DNA of 48,693 nt from Candidatus Bipolaricaulota bacterium (GTDB taxonomy: Bacteria; Bipolaricaulota; Bipolaricaulia; Bipolaricaulales; Bipolaricaulaceae), in the NCBI GenBank assembly GCA_014361055.1, contig JACIWI010000133.1, positions 1 through 48,693 of the forward strand, given 5' to 3'. Under the pieces are notes generated by a model. That model had not been told where the DNA came from. It ran no database searches and worked only from the letters and a program-made list of their open reading frames with translations. The translations under genes were made by a program, and so were the position numbers. This document shows positions 1 to 48,227 of this stretch, piece by piece. How positions within the stretch are numbered: position 1 is the stretch's first letter; every line of letters begins with the position of its first letter.

Positions 1-144
1 CGTCCATCTCTGAGCCGGGACGTCGTCGAACCGCGGGGATCGGAAGCTCTCCGCGTAGCCGGAGGCTCCGCGGCCCATTCCTATGTGGATTTCTAGCCGC
101 GGCGTTCCGAAGTTGTCCGCGTGGCCGAAGGCCCAGCGGGCCAT
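1..144 (-). CDS. 5' end of an unidentified ORF immediately downstream of the fumarase alpha gene (ATG at 144, frame open to window edge); product unknown, does not resemble fumarase beta
   Basis: ATG at 144 sits 1 nt after the fumarase alpha stop. The frame stays open to position 1 and reads MARWAFGHADNFGTPRLEIHIGMGRGASGYAESF. No recognisable family was found by eye. Confidence 0.25.
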   Translation of the reverse strand, partial: MARWAFGHADNFGTPRLEIHIGMGRGASGYAESFRSPRFDDVPAQRWT

Positions 145-996
145 TCATAGCACCTCTACCGTCCCATCGGGACGCACCCGAACCGTGGCGCGGCGGTGGG
201 CCCAGCACTGGACGACGATCCCCAGCGGGAGCGACGCGGGATGCCGGTGGGCGTACTCGGCGTGGACGGCCAACACGGTCGTCTTCCCTCCGAGCCCCAT
301 CGGACCCACCCCGGAGGCGTTGATCAGCTCCTCGAGCTCCGCCTCCAGGGCAGCAACTTGGGGCTCGGGATGGCGCTCCCCCACCGGGCGGAGGAGGGCC
401 ACCTTCCCGAGCTTGAGGGCGAGGTCGGCTCCACCGCCGATCCCCACCCCCACCACCGTGGGTGGACAGGGGAGGCCCCCGCATCCCACCACGTGTTCCA
501 CCACCGCTTCCTTCACCCCCCTGAGGCCCACCCCGGGAGGGAGCATCCGGAGGGCGCAGCAGTTCTCCGATCCCCCGCCCTTGGGAAGGACGTGGATCTC
601 TGCTTCGTTCCCATCCACCGGCTCCCAGGTGATGGCCGGTATGAGCCGGCCGGTGTTGTCCCCGGGGTTCCCTCCGGTGAGCGGGTGGACCGTGTTCGGC
701 CGCAGGGGCACCGCCTTCGTGGCCGCCCGCGCCGCCTCGGGAAGCGCCGCCCGCAACTCCGCAAGATGAGGGAACCCCACCCCGAACCGGACGAAAAACG
801 AGAGCGTGCCCGTGTCCTGGCAGATCGGGACCCGGCCCTCGCGGGCGATCCCGACGTTTCGGAGGATCGCCTCGAGCTGCACCCGGGCCGGGCCGGCCTC
901 CCGATCCCGGGCCCGCTCAAGCGCCCATACCACGTCCGGCGGTAGCTCCACGGCCGCCTTGGCCACCGCCGCGACCAGCGCCTCTATGAGCTTCAT
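145..996 (-). CDS. class I (Fe-S) fumarate hydratase / L(+)-tartrate dehydratase alpha subunit
   Basis: 283 aa carrying the ICQDTGT signature and the GGGSENCC and VGIGG motifs of the FumA/TtdA alpha family. The start overlaps the stop of the preceding oxidoreductase beta gene (993..996). Confidence 0.85.
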   Translation of the reverse strand: MKLIEALVAAVAKAAVELPPDVVWALERARDREAGPARVQLEAILRNVGIAREGRVPICQDTGTLSFFVRFGVGFPHLAELRAALPEAARAATKAVPLRPNTVHPLTGGNPGDNTGRLIPAITWEPVDGNEAEIHVLPKGGGSENCCALRMLPPGVGLRGVKEAVVEHVVGCGGLPCPPTVVGVGIGGGADLALKLGKVALLRPVGERHPEPQVAALEAELEELINASGVGPMGLGGKTTVLAVHAEYAHRHPASLPLGIVVQCWAHRRATVRVRPDGTVEVL

Positions 997-4977: not shown

Positions 4978-5661
4978 TCAGGGCTCGATGTCCCGGGCCT
5001 GGTACGCCTTGGCCAACTCGTCCTTGCCCATGCCCATCAGCCGGTCCAGCTCAGCGTCGAAGGCCCCGGACTCCACCTCGGCCACCCGCCGGGCCAGGTG
5101 CTGGGCGCGGGGGGTGAGGTAGGCCCCGCAGAGGCGCCGGGCGAGCTGCCACACGTGGTAGTGGGCGATCTCCGCCGGACAGCGCATGGCACACAGGCCG
5201 CACTGGACGCAGTCGAAGGTGAGCTCGGCCACCTGCCGGATATCCCCCCGCAGGGCGGCCTGGACGGCGTCCATCACCTCCAGCTTCTGGGGGCAGGATC
5301 TGGTGCACGTGTTGCAGGCCACGCACCGCGCCAGCTCCGGGTACAGGGCGAGGAGCGCTTCCCCCCGGGGGGCGACCTGGGACAGCTGGTAGTCGGCCCG
5401 CTCGGCCGGGGTGGACGGCAGTTGAGCGATGTACATGCCGTCCTGGACCGTGGTCTGGCAAGCGAGATCGGCGTAGAGGCGGTAATCCCCGGGCAGACGG
5501 TACACGGTGGCGCAGGCCCCGCAGTAGCCGCCGCGGCACCCACAGCCCCGTACCAGGCGGTACCCAGCGTACTCCATGGCCTTCATGATCGTGAGGCCCT
5601 CGGGCACGCGGTACCCCTTGCCCATAATGTACACGGTGAGCATCCCTTGATCTCTGGTCAT
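4978..5661 (-). CDS. fumarate reductase / succinate dehydrogenase iron-sulfur subunit (FrdB/SdhB-like)
   Basis: 2Fe-2S motif CGCRGGYCGACA, then CVACNTCTRSCP and CVQCGLCAMRCP. The start is taken at MTRDQGMLTVY, an ATG at 5661 with a GAGGUGA Shine-Dalgarno, 4 nt after the HdrB-like stop. Confidence 0.8.
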   Translation of the reverse strand: MTRDQGMLTVYIMGKGYRVPEGLTIMKAMEYAGYRLVRGCGCRGGYCGACATVYRLPGDYRLYADLACQTTVQDGMYIAQLPSTPAERADYQLSQVAPRGEALLALYPELARCVACNTCTRSCPQKLEVMDAVQAALRGDIRQVAELTFDCVQCGLCAMRCPAEIAHYHVWQLARRLCGAYLTPRAQHLARRVAEVESGAFDAELDRLMGMGKDELAKAYQARDIEP

Positions 5662-5665
5662 CCCC

Positions 5666-6529
5666 TCACCTCTGTTGCGCACCGGCGGCCGCCGGGGTGG
5701 TCCCCTGGATCAGGGCCTCCGCCTCGGGCGGGAGGCAGGCGTCCGCCCCTAGGGCCCACGCCAGGAGCTGGCCCAGGTACGCGACGGGCAGCCGCGGCCC
5801 AATCCCCGGCCGGCGCGCCTCCAGGTTGAACTGACAGAGCGGACAACTGGTGACGATCAGGTCCGCCCCATTGGCCGCGGCGGAGGCGACGATGTCCCTC
5901 ACCCGCCCCGCCACGATCGCCGGCGCCCCCACCGTCAAGTACGCCCCGCAGCACTCCACCTTGTACGGGAACTCGGCGACCTCCGCCCCCAGGGCCGAGA
6001 GCACCCGCTCGAAGACCTCCGGCTGGTCGGGGTTGTCCACCCCTACCTCCCGCGGCCGCACCAGGGTACACCCGTAGTACGGCGCGGCCCGTACCCCCGT
6101 GAGGGGGCGGACCACCTTGGATGCCAGGTTTTCGTATCCCACCACGTCCCGTAGGAGCCCAAGGAGGTGGAGCACCTCCACCCCGCCGCGGTAGTCGTGC
6201 TCGTCGCTCATGAACGCGTTGATCCGCGAGAGCCGCTCCGGGTCGGCGGCCACGAACCGGGCCGACCGCCTGAGCGTCCCGTAGCACATCGCGCATAGGG
6301 TGAGGACCCGGTCCTCGCCCATGTCCTGGACGCGGATCAGGTTCCGTACCGGGCCCACGTGGCGCATCAGGTCATCGTTGGCCAGGGAGTACACGGTGCC
6401 GCAGCAGTTCCAACGGGGGAGCTCGACGAGCTCGCAGCCGAGGGCGGCGAGCGCGGCCTGGGCGGCCCGCTCGTAGTCTCGGGCCTGATCCTTCATCGCG
6501 CAGCCGGGGAAGTAAGGGATCCTCTTCAT
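5666..6529 (-). CDS. HdrB-like protein with two CCG (Cys-rich) domains (heterodisulfide reductase B / SdhE / TfrB C-terminal-like)
   Basis: The true start is MKRIPYFPGCAMKDQ, an ATG at 6529 that overlaps the HdrC-like stop as ATGA. Two CCG domains are present: C..PRWNCCGT and ...YKVECCGAY...SCPLCQ. Confidence 0.8.
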   Translation of the reverse strand: MKRIPYFPGCAMKDQARDYERAAQAALAALGCELVELPRWNCCGTVYSLANDDLMRHVGPVRNLIRVQDMGEDRVLTLCAMCYGTLRRSARFVAADPERLSRINAFMSDEHDYRGGVEVLHLLGLLRDVVGYENLASKVVRPLTGVRAAPYYGCTLVRPREVGVDNPDQPEVFERVLSALGAEVAEFPYKVECCGAYLTVGAPAIVAGRVRDIVASAAANGADLIVTSCPLCQFNLEARRPGIGPRLPVAYLGQLLAWALGADACLPPEAEALIQGTTPAAAGAQQR

Positions 6530-29078: not shown

Positions 29079-29594
29079 CTATGGAGTAGGAGCGCCCTCT
29101 TCTCTGGGAGCACGCTCAGGCGGGAACGCCGCCAGGGCCGCTCTGACAGAGTCCAGCAGTCGTTCAACGGACGCAATCCCACCCAACATATACTCCTCGT
29201 CAATCAATGAGGAACTCAGATCGCAGGCTACTGGCCCCCACCTGTTGACGAACTCGTTCTGGTACCGACCCTTGCCCAGGAAGTACTCGTCTGAGTGCTC
29301 GCGAGCATCACGAACTCTCTCGGCCATTTCCGTAGCCTCCAGGAACTCGCGGAGAGCAGGCTGGTCACGTCTTGAGACATGGGGTTCGATTCGACGGAGA
29401 AACCGCCGTGCCATTACCGTAGCTGTCAACGCGTAGTGCTCGAGGAACGGGCGAGATCGGAGAAGATCGGGCTCAGGTGGCCTCTCAGCGGACAGCTTGT
29501 CGCGAAGTTGGAGCAAGGCTGTGAGCATGCGGGATGCCTCCTCCAACCAAATGCGGCCAAAGAACAGACAGGTATTGAAATCAGACGTGTTCAT
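29079..29594 (-). CDS. hypothetical protein co-transcribed with the split restriction-modification genes (contains an R-x4-H motif)
   Basis: 171 aa. ATG overlaps the stop of the upstream restriction-modification C-terminal-half gene as ATGA. Local GC is lower. No family recognised; RRIEPH matches the minimal HEPN Rx4-6H pattern. Confidence 0.45.
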   Translation of the reverse strand: MNTSDFNTCLFFGRIWLEEASRMLTALLQLRDKLSAERPPEPDLLRSRPFLEHYALTATVMARRFLRRIEPHVSRRDQPALREFLEATEMAERVRDAREHSDEYFLGKGRYQNEFVNRWGPVACDLSSSLIDEEYMLGGIASVERLLDSVRAALAAFPPERAPREEGAPTP

Positions 29595-30967
29595 GATGCC
29601 CTGACTTCGTCCACCCGCGTGCGGGACTCATATAGGTGAGTCGCCTGTGTCCGATCACGGCTCTGTCTCACCCCCCACCTCGCGAAGGAATCTTTCCTCC
29701 ACGCCCGGGTAGAGGTCATCGATCTCGGCCTGGATCTCGATGGTCTTGGAGAGAGCGGTGGTGATGCGGCAGTAGGTGCGGATGTCGTCGAGGGTGAGGG
29801 TGCGGTCTTTGCGGTCCTTGAGCCACTTGTGGCACACCTGGTACCCGCCGATCGGGTACTCCCACATTCCGGCGGGACGGGCGCGAAGTACTGGCTCGGA
29901 TTGATGTACACGCGCTCCTGCTTAGCGTCGTAGCGGAGGCCCTTCTTGCCGGAGACGATCACCTTGCCGTCGCCCTCGCCCTGGAACTGGGCGAGCGGCG
30001 GATCGAGCTCGAGCGATCGGAGGAGATGTAGCTCCACCAGCCGTTCCCCCAGCTCGGCCATGTTCTTGAAGAGCTCACGATCGGAGGTGAACGGGATGCG
30101 CGGGAAGTCGAGCCGCAGGAACTCGGCGTACTTCTCGCGGTAGGTCGGGGCGTACAGGACCGCGTAGACGTAGTGGAAGATCTCTCCCGGCGACGGCTCA
30201 TGCCCATACGCCGCGGCGAGAGCCGCGAGAAGTTCGGGGTTCAGGTTCGGCCGCCGCTCAGAGGGGCTGTGTGTTGCGAGGGGGCCGCGCTGTTCTGCCC
30301 CGGGGTAGAGGTAGAGCGGGAAGACGAGGATGCCACCACGGTAGAAGGCGTTGAAGTCCGCGATGTGCTGGGCGCAGTACGCAAGGTTCCAAGTACCTCC
30401 ACCCACCACTTGTCCAGCACGGCCTGTATGCAGGGCAACGTTCTCGCCCGCAAGCATGTGGCGCATGACTTCTTCCCGCCCGAAGTCGATCGCATGCGGA
30501 TGGTAAAAGAGCCAACGGGCATCGAAGGGTCTGTACAGACAGGGCACCAGCTTCTTCTCCCAACATCTGTCTTGCTGGAGCAATCGGCGTTTCTCGGAGA
30601 GTCTCCAGTCGCGATTGTCCGGGAGGGCAAACGTCTCTCGGGCCAGGTTGTCGGAGAGGCTCGGGCTCAGGAACGTGCGGATACGGTTCCTGAGGATTTC
30701 GCGATCGAAGTCGAACACGAAGTGATCACGATGGGTCTTGATGCCGGTGCTGCTAACTGGGAACACATCCATGATCTTGGGAAACCGCTCGTACTGAGCG
30801 AACGCTGCCTCGTCGCGAGGGATGAACAGGTAGAAATCCGGTCCTGGCTGCACGGACTGCCACTTGGTGGTCTTCCAGTCGTGATCCTTGAGCCAGGAGT
30901 ACTTCGCCTCGCGCTGGCCCCACAGGTTGGCGTGGTACACCTTGGCCATTCTCTCCTTGCGCGTCAT
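29591..30967 (-). CDS. C-terminal (target-recognition) half of an MmeI-family type IIL / type ISP-like restriction-modification enzyme
   Basis: Begins MTRKERMAKVYHANLWGQREAKYSWL, the Y-H/A-x-x-LWG segment that in intact homologues follows the MTase domain directly. 458 aa. Start overlaps the MNT stop as ATGA. Confidence 0.65.
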   Translation of the reverse strand: MTRKERMAKVYHANLWGQREAKYSWLKDHDWKTTKWQSVQPGPDFYLFIPRDEAAFAQYERFPKIMDVFPVSSTGIKTHRDHFVFDFDREILRNRIRTFLSPSLSDNLARETFALPDNRDWRLSEKRRLLQQDRCWEKKLVPCLYRPFDARWLFYHPHAIDFGREEVMRHMLAGENVALHTGRAGQVVGGGTWNLAYCAQHIADFNAFYRGGILVFPLYLYPGAEQRGPLATHSPSERRPNLNPELLAALAAAYGHEPSPGEIFHYVYAVLYAPTYREKYAEFLRLDFPRIPFTSDRELFKNMAELGERLVELHLLRSLELDPPLAQFQGEGDGKVIVSGKKGLRYDAKQERVYINPSQYFAPVPPECGSTRSAGTRCATSGSRTAKTAPSPSTTSAPTAASPPLSPRPSRSRPRSMTSTRAWRKDSFARWGVRQSRDRTQATHLYESRTRVDEVRAS

Positions 30968-31281
30968 GCCTCGATCCCGACGGGCTTGACCTCGTCGCCC
31001 ACGAACGTCCCCTCCCCCAGGGAGGCGTACTCCTCGGACGTGTACCCGAGTGCCTGAACCGGCTCCATGATCCTCGCCGCCGCCACTCCCAAGAGCTCAA
31101 GCCGCTCCCGCAGGCCCATGCGTGCGAAGTCCTTGGAGATCACGACCACGTCAATATCGCTCTCCTTGTCGAGGATCCCCTTGGCGCGCGACCCATAGAC
31201 GATCACCTTCTCCGGCTCGATCCCCAGCCGGCGCAGCTCCTCCTTGTATCGCCTCACGGCTTCAACTGTCTCGCGATCCAT
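30964..31281 (-). CDS. minimal nucleotidyltransferase (MNT) of a HEPN/MNT toxin-antitoxin pair
   Basis: GSRAKGILDKESDIDVVVI is the GS...DxD Pol-beta-type nucleotidyltransferase signature. 105 aa. Confidence 0.8.
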   Translation of the reverse strand: MDRETVEAVRRYKEELRRLGIEPEKVIVYGSRAKGILDKESDIDVVVISKDFARMGLRERLELLGVAAARIMEPVQALGYTSEEYASLGEGTFVGDEVKPVGIEA

Positions 31282-31640
31282 TCCACCGCCTCCTCTGCCT
31301 GCCGCAGGTACGCCTCGGCCACCTCCCGGGGGTAGGCACGCACGACCTCTTCGAGGTCCGCCGGGTAGCGGGTGGCTGTGCTGGACCCAGCAAGCTTCCC
31401 GAGGAAGTCCCGCAGCTCCGATGGGGGGTCGAGCCTCGCTCGCTTGAGGAGGACGATCAGGTCGTGGATCCGCGGCGGAGTCCTTCCCGTCTGCTCCTGA
31501 ACCCTGGCCTTGAGCGCCTTCTCCACCGCGAGGTGGGCGAAGAAGACCGTGTACACGAACCGGCCTGCCGCCAGCATGTCCCGCGCGGCAGCGAGGTCGT
31601 AGCGCGCGGAGTTCAGCCAGTTCTCAACCCTTGCGTCCAT
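31254..31640 (-). CDS. HEPN-domain protein of a HEPN/MNT pair
   Basis: 128 aa all-helical protein with GRTPPRIHDL (the R-x5-H HEPN motif). It overlaps the MNT gene by 28 nt and the upstream MTase stop by 17 nt. Confidence 0.75.
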   Translation of the reverse strand: MDARVENWLNSARYDLAAARDMLAAGRFVYTVFFAHLAVEKALKARVQEQTGRTPPRIHDLIVLLKRARLDPPSELRDFLGKLAGSSTATRYPADLEEVVRAYPREVAEAYLRQAEEAVEWIARQLKP

Positions 31641-33492
31641 CTCCGTACCTTATGAAGAAAGCGATCGCCACGCCCTGGCGGATGTCGAACACGTTCTCGT
31701 CTGGGGAGCCGTCGGGGCAGATCTCCTTCTTGAGGGAGTTCCCGTGGAGGTCGAGCACGTAGATCTCGTCGAACGTGGTCATCAGGTGCTGGCGCATCCC
31801 GCGGAAGGTTGGGTTGTCGAGGTAGCCGTGGTTCGTGATCATCCCCACCACGCCCTGGCCGGCCTGGGCAATCTTCCACTCCGCGAACCGCAGGAATTTC
31901 ACGTAGTCGTCCTGGAGCCACTTAGGGTTCTTCTCCCCCAACGGCTTTCCATCTACCTGCTTGTAGTCTTCAATGAGCCCGCGGATCCACGGTCCCTTGT
32001 TGGCGGAGTGGCCGAAGTACGGGGGGTTCCCGAGGATCACGAGGATCGGCACGTCGCGCTTGACCTCGCCGGCTTGGTGGGATTCGTGGGCGAGGGACGC
32101 AAACCCCGGAAGCTGACTCTCGGCAAGCTCCTCCATCTCCAGGGTGTTCGTGAGGTAAAGCTTGAACCTGTCATCGGGGCCGAGGGTGTACCCCAACTCC
32201 TCGAGGAAGAACCCCATCTTGAGGTGCCCCACGGCGTAGGGCGCCATCATGAGCTCGAACGCATAGAAGTTCTTCAGGATGTGATCGCGGATGAACTCCT
32301 TGCGCCCCGCCTCTCCGTACTTGGAGACGAACTCCTCCACCGCGACCTGGGCCGCTCTCGCGACGAACGTCATCGTCCCCGCCGCCGGGTCGAGGAGGGT
32401 CACGCCGGGGGAGGCGAGGCCGTCAGGTCTCCCGAATCTCTGCTGGAGGATCTGGTGAAGGGAGCGGACGATGTAGGACACCACCGGCTCGGGGGTGTAG
32501 TACACGCCCCGGCGCTCGCGCTCCTCGGGGTCGTACTGGGCGAGGAACGTCTCGTAGAAGTGGACGATCGGGTCGGCCCCTTTGCCCTCGTGGAAGAACT
32601 GGTGAAGGATCCCCTTCACATCGGCCACGGCCAGGACCTCGGCCAGGTCGTCGACGATCCACTCCAGAGGCTTGGGGAGATCCCCAAGCGAGATGAAGCG
32701 GAACACGTCGCGGAGGATGCCGATGGTGTGGGGAATGGAGTCGAACGCAGCGCGACGGGTGAAGGTCTCTCCGGCCCGCACGCGGGCCGCAAACAGGCCG
32801 TAGGTGAGGGTTTGGGCGTAAAGGTCGGCGAAGTCCTCCATGGTCAGCCCGGCGATGAGGTGTTTCCGGAACGCCTCGTAGAAACCCAGGAGGTGGCCTC
32901 CCCCTCGGGTCTGCTCCTGGGCAAGCTCCTCGGCCACCACCTGGTCGCGGAGGAACCGGGTGCGCACGGCCAGGGCCACCGCCAGCTCTTCGGCGTTGTA
33001 CGCGCGGGGGAGGGAGAAGGCAAAGAACTGCTGAAGAAGCGTCTGCAGCTCGTCGGCCTGTTCGATCGGGGGCCTCGCGCCGAGCTTGGTGGCGACGAAC
33101 GGCCGGGCGAGGCGGGCGGCGGCCACGAGCGCTCCGTCGCGGTAGAGGCGGAACTCGAAGAAGTTGGTGAGGATGAGGTTCGGGAACGTTCTTCGGTAAC
33201 GCTGAAGCTGCTCGCTTTCCGCAATTGGCTCGAGGTTCTCCACCGTCGGCGCCTTGGCTTCGATGTAACCGATGATGTGCTGCTGGCCGTCCCATACCCG
33301 GAAGTCGGGGTTCCCGGCCTCGGTGGATTTCGGGAGCGTCGTGACGTGGACGGCCTCGAGCTTCGTTGCTTGGGCCCACGCGGAAACAAGGTCGGCCAGG
33401 GGCGCGTAGAAGCTCTCCTCGCGCGCATCGCCCTGGGCGGCGACTGCGGTGAGCCGAGCGAGGTAGTCGCGGAAGAGCGCCTTCTCAGCCAT
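31624..33492 (-). CDS. N-terminal half of an MmeI-family type IIL restriction-modification enzyme: PD-(D/E)xK nuclease domain plus gamma-class N6-adenine methyltransferase domain
   Basis: N-terminus GNPDFRVWDGQQHIIGYIEAK and TFPNLILTNFFEFRLY parallel the MmeI nuclease domain (D...E-x-K). MTase motif I is LLDPAAGTMTF and motif IV is ILGNPPYFG. The ORF ends about 140 aa after NPPY, and the target-recognition domain is missing from this polypeptide. Confidence 0.8.
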   Translation of the reverse strand: MAEKALFRDYLARLTAVAAQGDAREESFYAPLADLVSAWAQATKLEAVHVTTLPKSTEAGNPDFRVWDGQQHIIGYIEAKAPTVENLEPIAESEQLQRYRRTFPNLILTNFFEFRLYRDGALVAAARLARPFVATKLGARPPIEQADELQTLLQQFFAFSLPRAYNAEELAVALAVRTRFLRDQVVAEELAQEQTRGGGHLLGFYEAFRKHLIAGLTMEDFADLYAQTLTYGLFAARVRAGETFTRRAAFDSIPHTIGILRDVFRFISLGDLPKPLEWIVDDLAEVLAVADVKGILHQFFHEGKGADPIVHFYETFLAQYDPEERERRGVYYTPEPVVSYIVRSLHQILQQRFGRPDGLASPGVTLLDPAAGTMTFVARAAQVAVEEFVSKYGEAGRKEFIRDHILKNFYAFELMMAPYAVGHLKMGFFLEELGYTLGPDDRFKLYLTNTLEMEELAESQLPGFASLAHESHQAGEVKRDVPILVILGNPPYFGHSANKGPWIRGLIEDYKQVDGKPLGEKNPKWLQDDYVKFLRFAEWKIAQAGQGVVGMITNHGYLDNPTFRGMRQHLMTTFDEIYVLDLHGNSLKKEICPDGSPDENVFDIRQGVAIAFFIRYGDGRKG

Positions 33493-33540
33493 GCGCCTGA
33501 CTTATACCACCATGCGCCTGACTTATACCACAAGGATCAC
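33493..33540. repeat. 21-bp perfect tandem duplication (CATGCGCCTGACTTATACCAC x2) at the start codon and -10 region of the MTase-nuclease gene
   Basis: The plus strand at about 33488..33540 carries the unit twice. On the minus strand it reads GTGGTATAAGTCAGGCGCATG twice, and the second ATG is the gene start. An inverted partial copy AAGTCAGGC lies at about 33627..33635. Confidence 0.6.
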
Positions 33541-33725
33541 CCGTCAGGCCAGCGATCTAGGGAGTCGGGGCTTGTTCCGTGCATGTCGCCTCCCGACGCT
33601 GGGTACAGAGGGATGAGAACCCGGCAAGTCAGGCATCTCGGCTCTATGGAGATGACCAAACCCGCGAGTCGTGCGCTCGCAACATACGGGCGCCAGTTGC
33701 CCCTCTCTACGCGAAGATAACCGCC

Positions 33726-33989
33726 ATGCGCATCGTGGGGATGAAGGAACTGAGGGATCACGCGACGAAGCTTCTTCGTGGCCGTGACCCGGTGCTCGTC
33801 ATGCGCCGGGACAAGGTCGCGGGCGTGTTCCTCCCCCTGGACGGAGACGACCTCGCGCTTGAGCTCCGCCGCGAGGTCCAGCTCGGACTGGCGGCCAAGA
33901 TCCGGGAGAGCCTGACGAGCAAGGGGGTCTCGGAACAGGACGTCCTCGATGACTTCCAAGTTTCCCGCAAAGCTCGTCGTCGACGCTAA
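33726..33989 (+). CDS. Phd/YefM-type antitoxin (VapB-like)
   Basis: MRIVGMKELRDHATKLLRGRDPVLVMRRDKVAGVFLPLDGDD. The ATG is residue 50 of the listed ORF. It overlaps the downstream PIN gene. Confidence 0.65.
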   Translation: MRIVGMKELRDHATKLLRGRDPVLVMRRDKVAGVFLPLDGDDLALELRREVQLGLAAKIRESLTSKGVSEQDVLDDFQVSRKARRRR

Positions 33990-34395
33990 CGTCATCCTCT
34001 CCGCCGTCGTCGGAGGCAAGGCATCCGACCTCGTATGGGCCGTGCCCTCGCAGCTCGTAACCGCTGCGTACGCCCTTCAGGAGGTCATGCAGTACTCACT
34101 GACCCTCGCCGAGAAGGCGGACGTCCCCCTGGAGGTCGCCCTGGGTGCACTGCGCCTGCTCCCGATCACCGCCGTTCGCCGCAGCTTCTACGGAGCGAGA
34201 ATGGCCCAAGTCCGGGATCTGATCGGGAGCCGTGACCCAGACGACGTGGACCTCCTCGCGCTCGCCCTGAAGCTCGAGTCCCCGATCTGGACGAACGACT
34301 GCGACTTCCAGGGCCTCGGGGTTGTGATCTACACAACGGCCCAGCTGGCATCCATGTCGGATAGACCCACTCAGTCGGAGCAGGGGGTTGGGTAG
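33949..34395 (+). CDS. PIN-domain toxin VapC
   Basis: LVVDANVILSAVVGG...DVDLLALALKLESPIWTNDCDF, with PIN acidic residues. Confidence 0.8.
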   Translation: MTSKFPAKLVVDANVILSAVVGGKASDLVWAVPSQLVTAAYALQEVMQYSLTLAEKADVPLEVALGALRLLPITAVRRSFYGARMAQVRDLIGSRDPDDVDLLALALKLESPIWTNDCDFQGLGVVIYTTAQLASMSDRPTQSEQGVG

Positions 34396-35447
34396 CCGGT
34401 GACGAGGAAGTCGTCGCCCACGCGCTCGATCTCAAGGTCGCGAACGCGGATCGCCTGGGAGGGATCATCCACACCGTCGCCGCCCACGGAAGGGACGGCG
34501 TCCAGTCCGCCGAGTATCAAGGGGGCGTAGAAGAACGCGATCTTGTGAACAAGGTTCTGTGAGAGAAACGACCACGCCACCTCCGCTCCCCCCTCGACGA
34601 GGAGCGAGTCCGTCTCCTTCCCCAGCCGGCGCAGGAGCGCCTTCAGGTCGACCCGGTCCCCCTCTCCCGGCAGCCGCCACACCTCGACCCCTTTCGCGCG
34701 GAGCTGAGCTTCGATCTCAGATGGCATCCGGCCGGTGGTGGCGACGACGGTCTTCGCCTCTGGGGACAGGACCTTCGCCCCAAGGGGGATCCGCCCCTGA
34801 GAATCGAGCACGATCCTGAGCGGCTGCGGGCCTGGGACCTCGCGCACCGTGAGCTCCGGGTCGTCGGCGAGCACCGTCCCCACCCCGACCAGCACCGCTG
34901 CGTACCGCCGCCGCAGGGCGTGGACGAGCCGCCGCGCCTCGGGCCCGGTCAGCCACCGGGACCTGCCTGTGGCCGTGGCGATCTTCCCGTCCAGGGACAT
35001 CGCCAGCTTGAGGACCACGAATGGAGTTCGGTTACGAATCCAGTGGAAGAAGACCTCATTCAGGCGGCGGGCCTCGTCGGCGAGCACCCCCTCCACGACC
35101 TCGATCCCCGCCGCCCGCAACCGCGCGATCCCCTTTCCGTCCACAAGGGGGTTGGGGTCGCGAATGGCCACGATGACCCGGCGAATTCCGGAGGCGATGA
35201 CGGCCTCGGTGCAGGGCGGGGTCTTCTTCTCCCGATGAACACAGGGCTCCAGGTTCACGTAGAGGTCGGCCCCCCGGGCCCGGTCCCCGGCCTTCTCCAG
35301 GGCCACGGCCTCGGCGTGGGGGCCGCCGCACCGGGTGTGGTACCCCTCGGCGATCACCGCCCCGTCCCGCACTACCACCGCTCCCACGAGCGGGTTGGGC
35401 CGCGTGCAGCCCTCGCCCTGCCGCGCGAGCTCCAGGGCCCGCCTCAT
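34371..35447 (-). CDS. ribD: bifunctional riboflavin biosynthesis deaminase/reductase RibD
   Basis: Start at MRRALELARQ. CMP/dCMP deaminase motifs HAEAVAL and PCVHREKKTPPC, then a RibD C-terminal reductase domain. Confidence 0.85.
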   Translation of the reverse strand: MRRALELARQGEGCTRPNPLVGAVVVRDGAVIAEGYHTRCGGPHAEAVALEKAGDRARGADLYVNLEPCVHREKKTPPCTEAVIASGIRRVIVAIRDPNPLVDGKGIARLRAAGIEVVEGVLADEARRLNEVFFHWIRNRTPFVVLKLAMSLDGKIATATGRSRWLTGPEARRLVHALRRRYAAVLVGVGTVLADDPELTVREVPGPQPLRIVLDSQGRIPLGAKVLSPEAKTVVATTGRMPSEIEAQLRAKGVEVWRLPGEGDRVDLKALLRRLGKETDSLLVEGGAEVAWSFLSQNLVHKIAFFYAPLILGGLDAVPSVGGDGVDDPSQAIRVRDLEIERVGDDFLVTGYPTPCSD

Positions 35448-36100
35448 GAACCTCTCGTGTACCCCGCCGCCTTCCATAGGGCGAGCGCCGCCGCCCGGGG
35501 GTCGGGTTGAGCGAAGATCGCCGAACCGGCCACCACCAACTCCGCCCCCGCCTCCACCACCTGGCGCACGTTCTCCGGGCCGATCCCCCCGTCTACGGCG
35601 ATGACCACTGGCCGCCCCCGGAGTTCCCCCTGCAGGCGCCGGATGCGGTCCACCGCCTCAGGGTTAAACGCCTGCCCGCCGAACCCCGGCTCCACGCTCA
35701 TCACCAGCACCAGGTCCACTCGGTCGAGGTAGGGCAACACCGCCTCCATTGCCGTGCCCGGCCGGAGCGAGATCCCGACCTGGCAGCCGAGGCCCCGGAT
35801 CGTGCGGATCGCCTCCTCGGGTGGGTCGTGGGCCTCGACGTGGAACGTGATCACGTCCGCAGGACCCACCTTGAACTGCGGGGCATAGATGGCCGGGCGG
35901 TCGATCATGAGGTGGATGTCGAACGGAAGCCAGGTGTGCCGGCGCAGGGCGTTGGCCACCGTCGGCCCGAACGTGAGGTTGGGCACGAAGTGCCCGTCCA
36001 TCACGTCGAGATGGAGGTAGTCGACCACCCCCTCGACTCGCTTCACCTCCTCGGCGAGACGGCCGAAGTCGGCGGAGAGGAGGGACGGGGCCAGCTTCAT
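35444..36100 (-). CDS. rpe: ribulose-phosphate 3-epimerase
   Basis: MKLAPSLLSADFGRLAEEVKRVE...HLDVMDGHFVPNLTFGP...VMSVEPGFGGQAF. Confidence 0.9.
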   Translation of the reverse strand: MKLAPSLLSADFGRLAEEVKRVEGVVDYLHLDVMDGHFVPNLTFGPTVANALRRHTWLPFDIHLMIDRPAIYAPQFKVGPADVITFHVEAHDPPEEAIRTIRGLGCQVGISLRPGTAMEAVLPYLDRVDLVLVMSVEPGFGGQAFNPEAVDRIRRLQGELRGRPVVIAVDGGIGPENVRQVVEAGAELVVAGSAIFAQPDPRAAALALWKAAGYTRGS

Positions 36101-36774
36101 CGACGCCGGTTGGCGACCATAAGCATCGAGAGGAGCTGAAGGGCGGCCATCGCTGCGGCAGCGACGTAGGTGAGGGCAGCAGCGGTCAGGACCTCCTTCA
36201 CCGCGCCAAGCTCCTCCTGGGTCACGTACCCGCTCGTGCGCAGCGCCGCCACCGCCCGCCTAGAGGCGTTGAACTCCACGGGCAAGGTGATCAGGGTGAA
36301 CAGGACCGCCGCCGAGAACAGGATGATCCCGATGTTCACCAGAGGATCGGCGCGCAGAAAAAGGCCAATGAAGAACAACGGGAACGCGAGCTGGGAACCG
36401 AACATCGCCGCTGGGACCACCGCCGAGCGCAGGGCGAGGGGGGCGTACCGCTGGGCGTGCTGGATCGCGTGTCCGGCCTCGTGGGCGGCCACGCCCACCG
36501 CCGCTACCGACGCCGAGCCGGCGGCGGACAGGCGGAGGGTGCGGGAGCGCGGGTCGTAGTGGTCGCCGAGGGCGCGGCCCGTGCCCTCGATCTTGACCCC
36601 GCTCACCCCGGCCCGGGCCATGATCTCGTCCGCCACCTGGGCGGCGGTCACCCGACGCTGGGTCGGAACCTGGAGGTATTTGGCATACGTGCTCCGCACC
36701 TTGTACTGGGCGTAGATGGCGAGGATCAGGGCGGGGAAGAGGAGGATCAGCGTCTCCGGGTAGAAGAGCCACAT
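36097..36774 (-). CDS. membrane zinc metallopeptidase, YugP family
   Basis: HEAGHAIQH HExxH motif between TM segments, 225 aa. Confidence 0.8.
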   Translation of the reverse strand: MWLFYPETLILLFPALILAIYAQYKVRSTYAKYLQVPTQRRVTAAQVADEIMARAGVSGVKIEGTGRALGDHYDPRSRTLRLSAAGSASVAAVGVAAHEAGHAIQHAQRYAPLALRSAVVPAAMFGSQLAFPLFFIGLFLRADPLVNIGIILFSAAVLFTLITLPVEFNASRRAVAALRTSGYVTQEELGAVKEVLTAAALTYVAAAAMAALQLLSMLMVANRRR

Positions 36775-36815
36775 GGTCTCGCACCTCCTTGATCAAGCTC
36801 AGGCGTGAATTATAG

Positions 36816-37168
36816 CCGAGCTGGGGGAGAGGGCCATAGGCCGGATTCTGTCGAGGGGGACCATCCATCTATGCGGCCTACCCGGAGGCATCGGGCGGGC
36901 CACCCTCAAGCGCCTCCCTATTTGGCCTTGCTCCGGCCGGGGTTTGCCGTGCCCGGGAACCTCGCGGCCCCGGCGGTGGGCTCTTACCCCACCTTTTCAC
37001 CCTTGCCCGCACCCAGGCCAAGGGCCTGGGCCGCTGGCGGTCTGTTTTCTGTGGCACTTTCCAGGGATCACTCCCTCTCGGGTTTCCCCGAGCGGCCTGC
37101 CCTGCGGAGTCCGGACCTTCCTCAGGGGAAGAATCCCCTGCGGCCCCCTGGCCTTCTCCCCCGCCGCA
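36816..37168 (-). ncRNA. rnpB: RNase P RNA, bacterial type A
   Basis: The reverse complement matches conserved type-A blocks, with the E. coli M1 RNA sequence recalled from memory as the comparison. The blocks are AGGAAGGUCCGGACUCCGCAGGGCAGG (P4), GGUAAGAGCCCACC, CGGAGCAAGGCCAAAUAGGG, GGGUAGGCCGCAUAGAUGGAUG and CGACAGAAUCCGGCCUAU. P1 pairs GGGGGAGAAGGCC with GGCCCUCUCCCCC. Ends are approximate to about 5 nt. A TATAAT box lies at about 37197..37202. Confidence 0.85.
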
Positions 37169-45918: not shown

Positions 45919-45956
45919 CTTGGCCTCCTCCTTTTGGGCTTTATTATAAGCAAGTT

Positions 45957-48227
45957 GTGGCCAAGACACGGGCGGAAGACCTGGCGGAACGGGTAGCGCT
46001 GGTGCGCAAGGTGATAGAGCTGGAGCGGAAAAAGGGGCTCACGGACACGGCGGCAGTGGGCGGCTTAGAGGCTTTGGTGCGCCGCCATCTTCCCGCCGCG
46101 GCCAAAACCATCGCCGGATACAGCCAAATGACCGCAACGGAGCGGGCCCGGGCCTTGGAACGCCTGGAAGCCCAGCTCCAAAAAATCCTTCAAGGAGAAA
46201 CCGCTCTGCGCCTGGATAGCCCCATCTCCGCCGCGCCCGGAGTGGGAGAAAAACGCGCCCACCTCTTTCGTAAACTCGGGATCCACACCGTGGAGGATCT
46301 CCTTACCTTTTTTCCCCGCCGCTTGGAGGACCGCACTCAACTTCGGCCCATAAAGGATCTGCGAGATGGGGAAAACGCTTTGGTGGAGGGGGTTCTTCGG
46401 GCCAAATCCAAGGTGAAGGTCAAACCCAACCTGGAGCTGGTGAAAGCCGCCCTGGACGACGGAACCGGAATCCTCTTCGGGATCTGGTTCAACCAGCCCT
46501 GGATCTGGGAGCAACTGGAGCAGGGGCAGCGCTATGCGTTCTACGGCAAGGTCCAGATCCGCTTTGGAGAGATTCAGATGGAAAACCCCGTGTGGGAAAA
46601 GGCGGGAACGCGTTCGCAAACGGGAAGGTTCGTTCCGATTTATCCCAGCACGGAAGGTCTTTCCCAAAACATTTTGCAGCACGTGATTCGGCGGACCTTG
46701 GCCCGCGTGGGACCGATTCCGGAGACCATCCCTGAAGAAATCCGCGCGAAATGCAAGCTCCTTTCCCGCCGCGCCGCCCTCCAAAAAATCCACTTCCCCG
46801 AAAGCCTTGAGGAGTTCGAAAAGGCCCGGGAAACCTTGGCCTTTGAGGAGCTTTTCCTTTTGCAGCTCGGGCTTGTGCTCCACCGAAAACGCGAAAGCCA
46901 AGGACGGGTGATCACGCCCGACCCCCAGTGGCTAAAAACCTTTGTGGAAAGTCTTCCTTTTTCCCTCACCCCTTCGCAGCGGCGGGCCATTACCCATATC
47001 GAGGAGGACCTGCGTGCTCCTTATCCCATGCTCCGGCTTTTGCAGGGCGATGTGGGCTCGGGAAAGACCGTGGTGGCTGCGGCGGCCTGCGTTATGGTGG
47101 CCTCCGCCGGGGCCCAGGCCGCGGTCATGGCCCCTACGGAGATCCTCGCCGAGCAGCATTTCTTCGTGTTCCAGGAGCTTTTGCGCCCATTGCCCATCAA
47201 AATCGGGCTTCTATCCGGTGGACTTTCCAAAAAGGAACGGGAGGAGATGCTCGCTGCCATCGCCAAGGGAGAAATTCAGGTGGTGGTGGGAACGCATGCC
47301 CTCCTTGAGGAAGACGTGGAGTTCCGGGACCTGGCCTTGGCCGTGATTGACGAGCAGCATCGATTCGGAGTGATCCAGCGGGCCACCCTGGAGAAAAAAG
47401 GCCGGGGCACGAACGTCCTTGTCATGTCCGCCACCCCCATTCCCCGCACGGTGGTGCTCACCGTGTACGGGGAGTTCGAGCTTTCCGTGCTTGAGGAGCT
47501 TCCCATTCCCAGGCGGAACGTGCGCACGGTGTGGGTGGCGGAGGCCAAGCGCCAAGAGGTCTACGAAGAGGTGGCCCGGCGCCTGGCGAAAGGAGAAAAG
47601 GGCTACGTGGTGTTTCCGCTGGTGGAGGAATCGGAGGAGCTGGATCTCCGGGCGGCCACCGTGGCCTATGAGGAGCTACGAACCCGGTTCGGCGAGATCG
47701 TGGGCCTTCTTCACGGCCGCATGTCTTCCGAGGAGAAGCGCGCGGCCATGGCCGCCTTCCGGGAGGGCAGGACCCGCCTCCTTGTGGCCACCACCGTGGT
47801 GGAGCTGGGGTTGGATGTGCCGGACGCCTCGTTTTTGGTGATCGAGCATGCGGACCGGTTCGGCCTGGCCCAGCTCCACCAATTGCGGGGCCGGATCGGC
47901 CGCCAAGGGCAGGAGGCCATCTGCTGGGCTTTGGCCGATCCCTCCACTCCTGAGGCCCGGGAGCGCCTCACCGCCTTCCGCGACCTCACCGATGGGTTTA
48001 AGATTGCCGAAGCGGATTTGCGCATCCGCGGTCCCGGCGATCTTTTGGGCACGGCCCAACACGGTTTCATCTCCAAATTCCGGGCCGCAGACCTTGTTCG
48101 GGACCTCGGGCTTTTGGAGCGGGCGAGGATTGAGGCAAGGAAACTGGCGGAGAAAGGTGTTCCTCCGGAACTTGTGGCCGAGGTGGAGCGCCGGTTCGGA
48201 AAGGATTTGGAGCTTTTGGGGGTTTGA
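45957..48227 (+). CDS. recG: ATP-dependent DNA helicase RecG
   Basis: Wedge/N-terminal domain, then helicase motifs GDVGSGKT, VMAPTEILAEQH, DEQHRFGV, MSATPIPRT and HGRMSSEEK. The start (GTG at 45957) is uncertain. Confidence 0.85.
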   Translation: MAKTRAEDLAERVALVRKVIELERKKGLTDTAAVGGLEALVRRHLPAAAKTIAGYSQMTATERARALERLEAQLQKILQGETALRLDSPISAAPGVGEKRAHLFRKLGIHTVEDLLTFFPRRLEDRTQLRPIKDLRDGENALVEGVLRAKSKVKVKPNLELVKAALDDGTGILFGIWFNQPWIWEQLEQGQRYAFYGKVQIRFGEIQMENPVWEKAGTRSQTGRFVPIYPSTEGLSQNILQHVIRRTLARVGPIPETIPEEIRAKCKLLSRRAALQKIHFPESLEEFEKARETLAFEELFLLQLGLVLHRKRESQGRVITPDPQWLKTFVESLPFSLTPSQRRAITHIEEDLRAPYPMLRLLQGDVGSGKTVVAAAACVMVASAGAQAAVMAPTEILAEQHFFVFQELLRPLPIKIGLLSGGLSKKEREEMLAAIAKGEIQVVVGTHALLEEDVEFRDLALAVIDEQHRFGVIQRATLEKKGRGTNVLVMSATPIPRTVVLTVYGEFELSVLEELPIPRRNVRTVWVAEAKRQEVYEEVARRLAKGEKGYVVFPLVEESEELDLRAATVAYEELRTRFGEIVGLLHGRMSSEEKRAAMAAFREGRTRLLVATTVVELGLDVPDASFLVIEHADRFGLAQLHQLRGRIGRQGQEAICWALADPSTPEARERLTAFRDLTDGFKIAEADLRIRGPGDLLGTAQHGFISKFRAADLVRDLGLLERARIEARKLAEKGVPPELVAEVERRFGKDLELLGV

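Follow-up and report, generated by a model that had tools for sequence, protein, structure and literature searches.

A recent, strain-specific 21-bp tandem duplication at the putative leaderless-type promoter and start codon of a split type IIG restriction-modification operon in Candidatus Bipolaricaulota

The stretch of DNA analyzed here, referred to as the window, comprises 48,693 nucleotides of contig JACIWI010000133.1 (assembly GCA_014361055.1) from a Candidatus Bipolaricaulota bacterium. Database matches place the lineage in this phylum, and recG, def, ribD, rpe, and the RNase P RNA are all present, as expected of chromosomal DNA. The minus strand carries a cluster of four defence genes, namely the N-terminal half of a type IIG restriction-modification (R-M) enzyme, a HEPN toxin-like gene, an MNT (minimal nucleotidyltransferase) antitoxin-like gene, and the C-terminal specificity half of the enzyme. 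The start of the first gene is covered by a perfect tandem duplication of 21 bp, and this duplication is the subject of the present analysis.

The duplication occupies 33489..33531 on the minus strand. Tandem Repeats Finder reports a period of 21, 2.0 copies, 100% matches, and a score of 86, and a repeat search of the window returns two 100% identical units at 33489-33509 and 33510-33530. Read through the repeat, the minus strand is ccttG TGGTATAAGTCAGGCGCATG G TGGTATAAGTCAGGCGCATG G CTGAGAAG. It thus consists of two units of 21 nt plus one nucleotide, with a distal copy at 33531..33511 and a proximal copy at 33510..33490, and its ends show a 1-nt microhomology. The duplication junction is GGCGCATGGTGGTATAAG, and the counterpart with only one unit is CCTTGTGGTATAAGTCAGGCGCATGGC. 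Even when 3 mismatches are allowed, the 20-mer core GGTATAAGTCAGGCGCATGG is found at only these two sites in the window (shuffles expect 0.01). By our own calculation, about 1e-8 perfect 21-bp tandem repeats are expected in 48.7 kb of random sequence.

The duplicated segment extends from just upstream of a -10 box through the start codon. In the distal unit, a -10-like TATAAG (33522..33527) is preceded by TGG, an extended -10-like TGn element (33530..33528), and is located 8 nt upstream of an ATG at 33513..33511. This distal ATG opens a mini open reading frame (ORF) of 3 codons, ATG GTG GTA TAA (33502..33513), which is a product of the duplication and is absent from the one-copy (1x) allele. 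The mini-ORF is in the frame of the gene and is stopped by the TAA within the proximal TATAAG. The proximal unit repeats this arrangement, with TGn at 33509..33507, TATAAG at 33501..33506, and, 8 nt downstream, the real ATG (33492..33490) that opens the 622-aa ORF 31624..33492. A putative -35-like hexamer, TGGCCT at 33546..33551, is homologous to the TTGyCC of relatives and is placed 18 nt upstream of the distal TATAAG only; the proximal TATAAG has no -35-like hexamer at 16-19 nt upstream. A first-pass annotation, made from the sequence alone, had described a pair of units that each contain TATAAG, with a 3-codon ORF opened by the first ATG and the gene itself by the second, and this anatomy is borne out by the sequence and its translation.

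The same annotation had placed an inverted partial copy at about 33627..33635. An inverted 9-mer does exist, and its position is shifted by one base: AAGTCAGGC on the plus strand at 33626..33634, matching GCCTGACTT at 33495..33503 and 33516..33524 in the units. In dinucleotide shuffles of the 194-bp intergenic flank, this match is mildly unusual by itself (p ~0.02). The minus-strand RNA fold of 33470..33560 shows no structure beyond shuffles (z = +0.92), and a hairpin or attenuator formed by the shorter GCCTGAC/GTCAGGC heptamers was dropped as a candidate on this result.

Near-identical strains are useful for determining whether the repeat varies in nature, a check that the first-pass annotation had proposed. 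Contigs from such strains were found by looking for proteins identical to those of the PIN, antitoxin, HEPN, and MNT genes; an exact-protein look-up found no record of the 622-aa protein itself. The result is positive, with two copies (2x) in the window and in SRR30978041, and one copy in SRR34792195. In view of this variation, the idea of the first-pass annotation that the repeat could tune expression is plausible. The first contig, SRR30978041_36836 (locus L001), comes from an independent metagenome assembly, is 98.7% identical to window positions 29715..37002 over 7.3 kb, and carries the identical 2x allele. The second, SRR34792195_4276 (loci L092/L096), carries exactly one unit, ...ccttgtggtataagtcaggcgcATGGCGGAG, and the remainder of its intergenic region differs from the window by one base. 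The SRR11866725 contigs match the window at 100% identity, but they break off to either side of the promoter and the N-half gene and give no information on copy number. Substitutions in the ribD-rpe flank amount to 3, 9, and 6 per 1613 sites and yield the topology ((window, L001), L092), with all divergences below 1%.

More distant relatives provide the direction of change. The next outgroup, L099 (84% protein identity), has a single copy, as does each of 11 further Bipolaricaulota loci, and a tandem-repeat scan near the start of 84 homologous loci confined the 21-mer duplication to the window lineage. When JGI metagenome contigs were scanned for exact copies of TATAAGTCAGGCGCATGG, 6 matches came up, all of them unrelated chance matches in other contexts, and the junction 20-mer was not found in the viral contigs scanned. 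Because the outgroups are all single-copy and L092 is 1x, the 2x state is derived. It is very recent (strain divergence below 1%) and polymorphic between strains.

The duplicated sequence resembles a promoter that is conserved in relatives. The arrangement there is TTGnCC, 18 nt, (G)GGTATAA followed by G or A, 7-9 nt, and ATG. In an alignment of 13 promoters (A1), the T.G of the -35 element, GGTATAA, and ATG are invariant while the sequence upstream diverges; within the -10 hexamer, T-A-T-A-A is invariant and position 6 is either G or A. The -35-like element at 18 nt reads TTGnCC in 10 relatives and TGGCCT in this lineage, in which it serves the distal copy only. Counted from its first T, TATAAG begins 14 nt ahead of each ATG in the window and 13-15 nt ahead of it in relatives, and all close relatives use ATG as the start codon. 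The genomic neighbourhoods and upstream neighbour genes of the relatives differ, and the promoter blocks are kept. Because these blocks are invariant while the upstream sequence and neighbour genes differ, the R-M gene is predicted to carry its own promoter. Alignment A1 reveals no promoter feature that sets loci with HEPN and MNT apart from unsplit loci. The reading of TATAAG as a -10-like box, which was made in the first-pass annotation, is thus supported by the conservation of GGTATAA at a near-constant distance from ATG (7-9 nt).

No Shine-Dalgarno sequence is present at a functional distance; there is only AGG 3 nt before ATG in the window and AGGGG abutting ATG in relatives. TATAA occurs 10 times on both strands of the window, which has a G+C content of 67%. 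The upstream region of recG (GTG at 45957, 756 aa; plus strand, window 45920..45960) contains TTGGCC-N18-TATAAG-6 nt-GTG, with the same non-canonical box, and appears to be a second leaderless-type promoter in the window. TATAAG is probably a genuine -10-type box here, because TATAA is rare in the window and recG has a copy of it. The arrangement resembles that of published leaderless genes, in which a -10-like TA signal (TANNNT) precedes the start codon by about 12 nt (PMC3160421, PMC4007540). Leaderless sigma-70-type promoters of Actinobacteria and Deinococcus-Thermus are comparable to the present one in the -10-like box 7-9 nt before ATG, in the lack of a usable Shine-Dalgarno sequence, and in the -35-like TTG, which is conserved here at 18 nt; recG provides a second example in the window. 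In contrast to these, the hexamer ends in G or A rather than T in all relatives, the transcription start is predicted from sequence, and the core is present twice in this strain of an uncultured Bipolaricaulota lineage.

The gene downstream of the repeat had been annotated as a restriction-modification gene. It does encode nuclease and methyltransferase functions, as proposed, but it is only half of a type IIG enzyme, and the specificity half is frameshifted in the window. The N-terminal half (622 aa, 31624..33492, minus strand) matches Pfam N6_Mtase/Eco57I and the PADLOC profile REase_MTase_IIG (6e-157), and contains a PD..EAK nuclease motif and NPPY. The HEPN toxin-like gene (31254..31640, minus strand; Pfam HEPN 3e-22) begins with a 17-nt overlap with the stop of the N half. 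It is overlapped in turn by the MNT antitoxin-like gene (30964..31281, minus strand; Pfam NTP_transf_2), which is joined to the C half by an ATGA overlap. For the MNT gene, the NCBIfam match to MntA is below the cut-off, and NCBIfam otherwise gave no informative names. The C-terminal specificity half (29655..30967, minus strand) matches Pfam Type_ISP_C (2.6e-73) over profile positions 1-294 of 342 only.

Comparison with characterized enzymes clarifies the type of the system. The N half covers positions 3-495 of the PADLOC REase_MTase_IIG profile and the C half covers positions 654-1072; HEPN and MNT interrupt the enzyme at about residue 620, and its domains are not in one polypeptide. The unsplit homologue P0002 matches the solved structures of DrdV (7LO5), LlaBIII, and LlaGI over the methyltransferase and specificity parts only. 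For LlaBIII/LlaGI, the match is restricted to chain residues 845-1459, and unsplit homologues have about 1050 aa compared to 1400-1580 aa for type ISP enzymes; judged from this match and these chain lengths, the helicase-like ATPase motor of type ISP enzymes is not present. Because the match is limited to the methyltransferase and specificity parts, the enzyme is predicted to be type IIG/IIL-like, without the type ISP motor. It shares with type IIG/IIL enzymes of the DrdV and MmeI class the PD..EAK nuclease motif, a gamma-class N6A methyltransferase (NPPY), and a specificity domain, but here the chain is divided into two ORFs by the inserted HEPN-MNT pair. Compared to the type ISP enzymes LlaGI and LlaBIII, the methyltransferase and Type_ISP_C domains match, whereas the helicase/ATPase module is not found here.

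The split is not restricted to the window. Approximately 16 of the best 120 database matches have about 620 aa and are thus split at the same point, and unsplit proteins of about 1050 aa are common. The same HEPN-MNT split occurs in several Bipolaricaulota species (L003, L010, L011, L021, L099, and L100-L104), with HEPN identity down to about 60%, and the close relatives L002 and L013-L015 are unsplit, with about 1050 aa. HEPN genes within R-M operons are known in general (PMC3710099). A description of this particular type IIG split by HEPN-MNT was not found.

The specificity half is damaged in both 2x strains. In the window, a 1-bp deletion (one G) at approximately 29867 disrupts the C half: the called ORF 29591..30967 continues in the wrong frame, and the conserved C-terminal motif WEYPIGGYQVCHKWLKDRKDR picks up in another frame. 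The deleted G is present in L001, L092, and L098. In L001, an insertion sequence (IS, rve) has entered the 3' end of the C half after ...EIQAEIDD, at approximately position 7280 of L001. The lesions of the two 2x strains thus differ, and the 1x strain (L092) has an intact 437-aa C-half ORF. The duplication preceded the lesions, because it is shared by both 2x strains and the lesions are not. The pattern is compatible with relaxed selection or with selection against a mis-expressed enzyme, as an anecdote from three strains.

Decay of the Type_ISP_C half while the N half, HEPN, and MNT remain open is a repeated event, observed in the window, in L001, and in the P0009 lineage (L100-L104, approximately 5529..6136), where the specificity half is a 225-aa remnant ORF only. 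The N-half gene also varies between strains that are otherwise less than 1% apart, with two short patches of dense substitutions at 31909..32015 and 32668..32773. The patch that occurs in the window alone lies directly behind NPPY and has a 9-bp indel; the other is unique to L092. Both look like gene-conversion tracts from other homologues.

Taken as a whole, the data make it reasonably probable that the duplication is a recent, strain-specific product of slippage or unequal exchange at a leaderless-type promoter and start, that it changed and probably reduced expression of the operon, and that it is not a purpose-built switch. In the ancestral one-copy state, the promoter reads TTGnCC (-35), 18 nt, (G)GGTATAAG (-10), 7/8 nt, and ATG. 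It would drive a four-gene defence operon consisting of the type IIG N half, HEPN, MNT, and the specificity half, and transcription would begin on the AUG or only a few bases away from it. The 21 bp would then have been copied, most simply by replication slippage or by an unequal exchange. Following this event, the distal copy, which keeps the -35 element, would direct a transcript whose 5'-terminal AUG starts nothing but ATG GTG GTA TAA, and the real AUG of this transcript would follow the 5' end by 21 nt and the stop of the mini-ORF by 9 nt. The proximal copy would keep TGn-TATAAG and the native 8-nt gap to the real AUG, with the -35 element lost.

With reporters in Caulobacter, leaderless initiation was described by 0.45 × i^-0.91, where i is the leader length (PMC8459731). 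Applied to a leader of 21 nt, this relation gives approximately 3%, so translation of the distal transcript would need re-initiation. Operon expression was most likely changed by the duplication, and probably lowered. The feature type is familiar. The present repeat is comparable to spontaneous short tandem duplications at microhomology, which arise by replication slippage and include promoter-region duplications that alter expression: it is perfect, head-to-tail, and two-copy with 1-nt microhomology, it varies between near-identical strains, and its 2x state is derived when set against the outgroups. It differs from them in that the copied piece is the whole core promoter with the start codon, which yields a decoy mini-ORF rather than a frameshift or a spacer change. 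Both the mechanism of origin and the feature type are ordinary, and the case does not point to a new mechanism.

Several points weigh against the reading of a duplication that lowers expression from a leaderless-type promoter. A strict scan of 33300..33900 for sigma-70 promoters and terminators returned 0 sites, TATAAG departs from the -10 hexamer at position 6, where a T is otherwise conserved, and the -35 element of the lineage is weak, with TGGCCT matching 3/6 positions of TTGACA. The proximal copy with its extended -10-like TGn could be fully active, and the net effect could be nil or, via two promoters, an increase. Re-initiation 9 nt past a 3-codon ORF could rescue translation of the distal transcript. 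Further, the link between the 2x state and downstream lesions is based on three strains only, and the N half, HEPN, and MNT ORFs are still open in both 2x strains.

An increase in expression is the basis of one alternative, which we consider unlikely, although it is worth setting out. Two TGn-TATAAG cores placed 21 bp (two helical turns) apart would raise transcription of the R-M and HEPN-MNT genes, and the resulting toxicity would have selected the lesions in the specificity half. Each unit has the extended -10-like TGGTATAAG, which may not need a -35 element, and the independent lesions in both 2x strains, with the 1x strain intact, would be in agreement with such selection. However, the cores overlap within one RNA polymerase footprint and would compete rather than add to each other, transcripts from the distal core begin with the decoy ORF, and the strains number only three.

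The divergent neighbours of the R-M gene are a toxin-antitoxin pair on the plus strand (33726..34395). It consists of a Phd/YefM-like antitoxin at 33726..33989 (Phd_YefM weak, E 0.039) and a PIN_2 toxin at 33949..34395 (Pfam 6e-23), with gene calls in L001. Similarity to homologous Phd-like/PIN_2 loci (L105-L108) starts exactly at the antitoxin ATG (33726). In place of the native TATAAT promoter and GAGGTG Shine-Dalgarno sequence of these relatives, the pair in the window is preceded by the R-M-side intergenic sequence (33493..33726). At the same site beside ribD, relatives contain other cargo (DUF4238, a ribbon-helix-helix protein, or a helix-turn-helix (HTH) protein with an N6_N4 methyltransferase). 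Because different cargo is held at the same site, the site beside ribD appears to be an insertion hot spot.

On an operator reading, GCCTGAC/GTCAGGC would be a half-site for a DNA-binding protein, for example the R-M enzyme itself, the MNT/HEPN complex, or the Phd-like antitoxin, and an extra site would alter repression of the divergent promoters. Such heptamers are located in each unit, at 33543..33549, and at 33628..33634. The GCCTGAC at 33543..33549 (minus strand) lies over the -35 region and forms a 7-bp inverted repeat with the GTCAGGC of the units that brackets the core promoter; CCTGAC is found at the same place in L002, L013, and L099. Five of the seven GCCTGAC copies of the 48.7-kb window fall in 33495..33916, and two are in the 194-bp intergenic flank outside the repeat. 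For this clustering, a p of about 0.0007 was obtained with the coding copy at 33910 counted, and the intergenic flank alone gives p ~0.008; both statistics are post hoc. Despite this clustering, the operator reading is improbable. The locus has no controller (HTH) gene, the CCTGAC next to the -35 element belongs to the ancestral promoter that relatives with other neighbours and specificity domains share, and the copy at 33910 is conserved antitoxin coding sequence. The homologous toxin-antitoxin loci L105-L108 lack GCCTGAC upstream and are unrelated to the window in that region. A role of GCCTGAC as the operator of the Phd-like/PIN pair in particular was rejected, given that the motif is not upstream in these loci and the fifth copy (33910) is coding.

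The first-pass annotation had thought more specifically of an operator for a controller (C) protein. C-protein operators of type II R-M systems are similar in that a repeated sequence lies over the promoter of the restriction gene, and C-gene transcripts are often leaderless themselves. In contrast, the locus has no C-protein or HTH gene, and no HTH_3-type protein is found among the neighbours (Phd-like/PIN_2 pair, HEPN, and MNT). The repeat is direct rather than a palindromic C-box pair, and the unit is single-copy in every relative. Paired palindromic C-boxes were not found, the only inverted matches being half-sites of 7-9 bp that are 20-122 bp apart. We therefore set the proposal aside.

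A reversible switch in copy number is doubtful to a slightly greater degree than an operator. In such a system, the 21-mer would flip between 1x and 2x by slippage in the population and toggle a real against a decoy 5'-terminal AUG, as a form of phase variation. Both states do occur among strains less than 1% diverged, and the SRR11866725 contigs (from Logan) that end on both sides of the N-half gene and promoter could mean an allele mixture. However, these contig breaks have other likely causes, such as the N-half recombination patches; a long unit present only twice is not hypermutable, one event on the tree accounts for the distribution, and there is no recurrence in about 80 homologous loci. 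We attach marginally less probability still to the particular proposal of a decoy-start switch specific to leaderless genes, by which copy gain would place the -35 promoter on the decoy AUG and copy loss would restore the real AUG. If a switch were true, a population could turn the combined R-M and HEPN/MNT operon down and up with the coding sequence untouched.

Phase variation in the usual sense, as had been suggested initially, does not fit the sequence. There are two 21-nt copies only, and 21 nt correspond to 7 codons with an in-frame TAA, while the distal -35/-10 spacing remains 18 nt; neither frame nor spacing shifts. R-M genes that are phase-variable through simple sequence repeats ("phasevarions") are comparable in having a 5'-end repeat whose copy number differs between strains. 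Unlike these, the present locus has two copies of a 21-nt unit rather than many copies of a 1-7-nt unit, with no change in frame or spacer and no sign of recurrence.

A target-site duplication (TSD), that is, the footprint of a mobile element that was inserted at the promoter and later excised, had also been suggested. Formally, a perfect direct repeat whose copies adjoin each other would agree with it, and the sister strain L001 has an active IS (rve). Such an origin is nevertheless very improbable, as no allele with an element between the repeats occurs in 3 strains and about 80 homologous loci. Moreover, common bacterial IS families leave TSDs that are far shorter than 21 bp, and excision in bacteria normally removes one TSD copy or leaves remnants. 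The least credible explanation is an assembly or sequencing artefact; the first-pass annotation had named evidence of an assembly artefact as what would refute its reading. Nothing was found in favour of an artefact, which is ruled out for practical purposes because a second assembly, built independently from a different run, has the identical junction, and junction k-mers would have to exist in the reads for a de Bruijn assembler to output the repeat.

Repeats are also found elsewhere. A heptamer array of CGTGATC (8.6 copies, 86% matches) is located at 12272..12331, with inverted copies (ggtttacggataacggatcacggtttacg) about 40 nt further on, at approximately 12365..12395; it lies at the 5' end or edge of a long minus-strand ORF, 10303..12405. 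Upstream of the homologous R-M gene in L003, positions 1..400 are full of REP (repetitive extragenic palindromic)-like palindromic repeats (gtagcgtcggggtttatccccgacg). The bacterial class A RNase P RNA of the window is encoded at 36822..37159 on the minus strand (242 bits), with a TATAAT about 45 nt upstream of the mature 5' end.

The duplication represents a natural micro-duplication polymorphism in the uncultured phylum Candidatus Bipolaricaulota and offers a ready 1x/2x pair for questions on leaderless promoters and 5'-terminal starts. If it alters the output of the operon, it would help to explain the independent loss of the specificity half in both 2x strains. Arguably of greater interest than the duplication is the operon itself, in which a split type IIG enzyme and a conserved HEPN-MNT cassette are under one apparent leaderless-type promoter.

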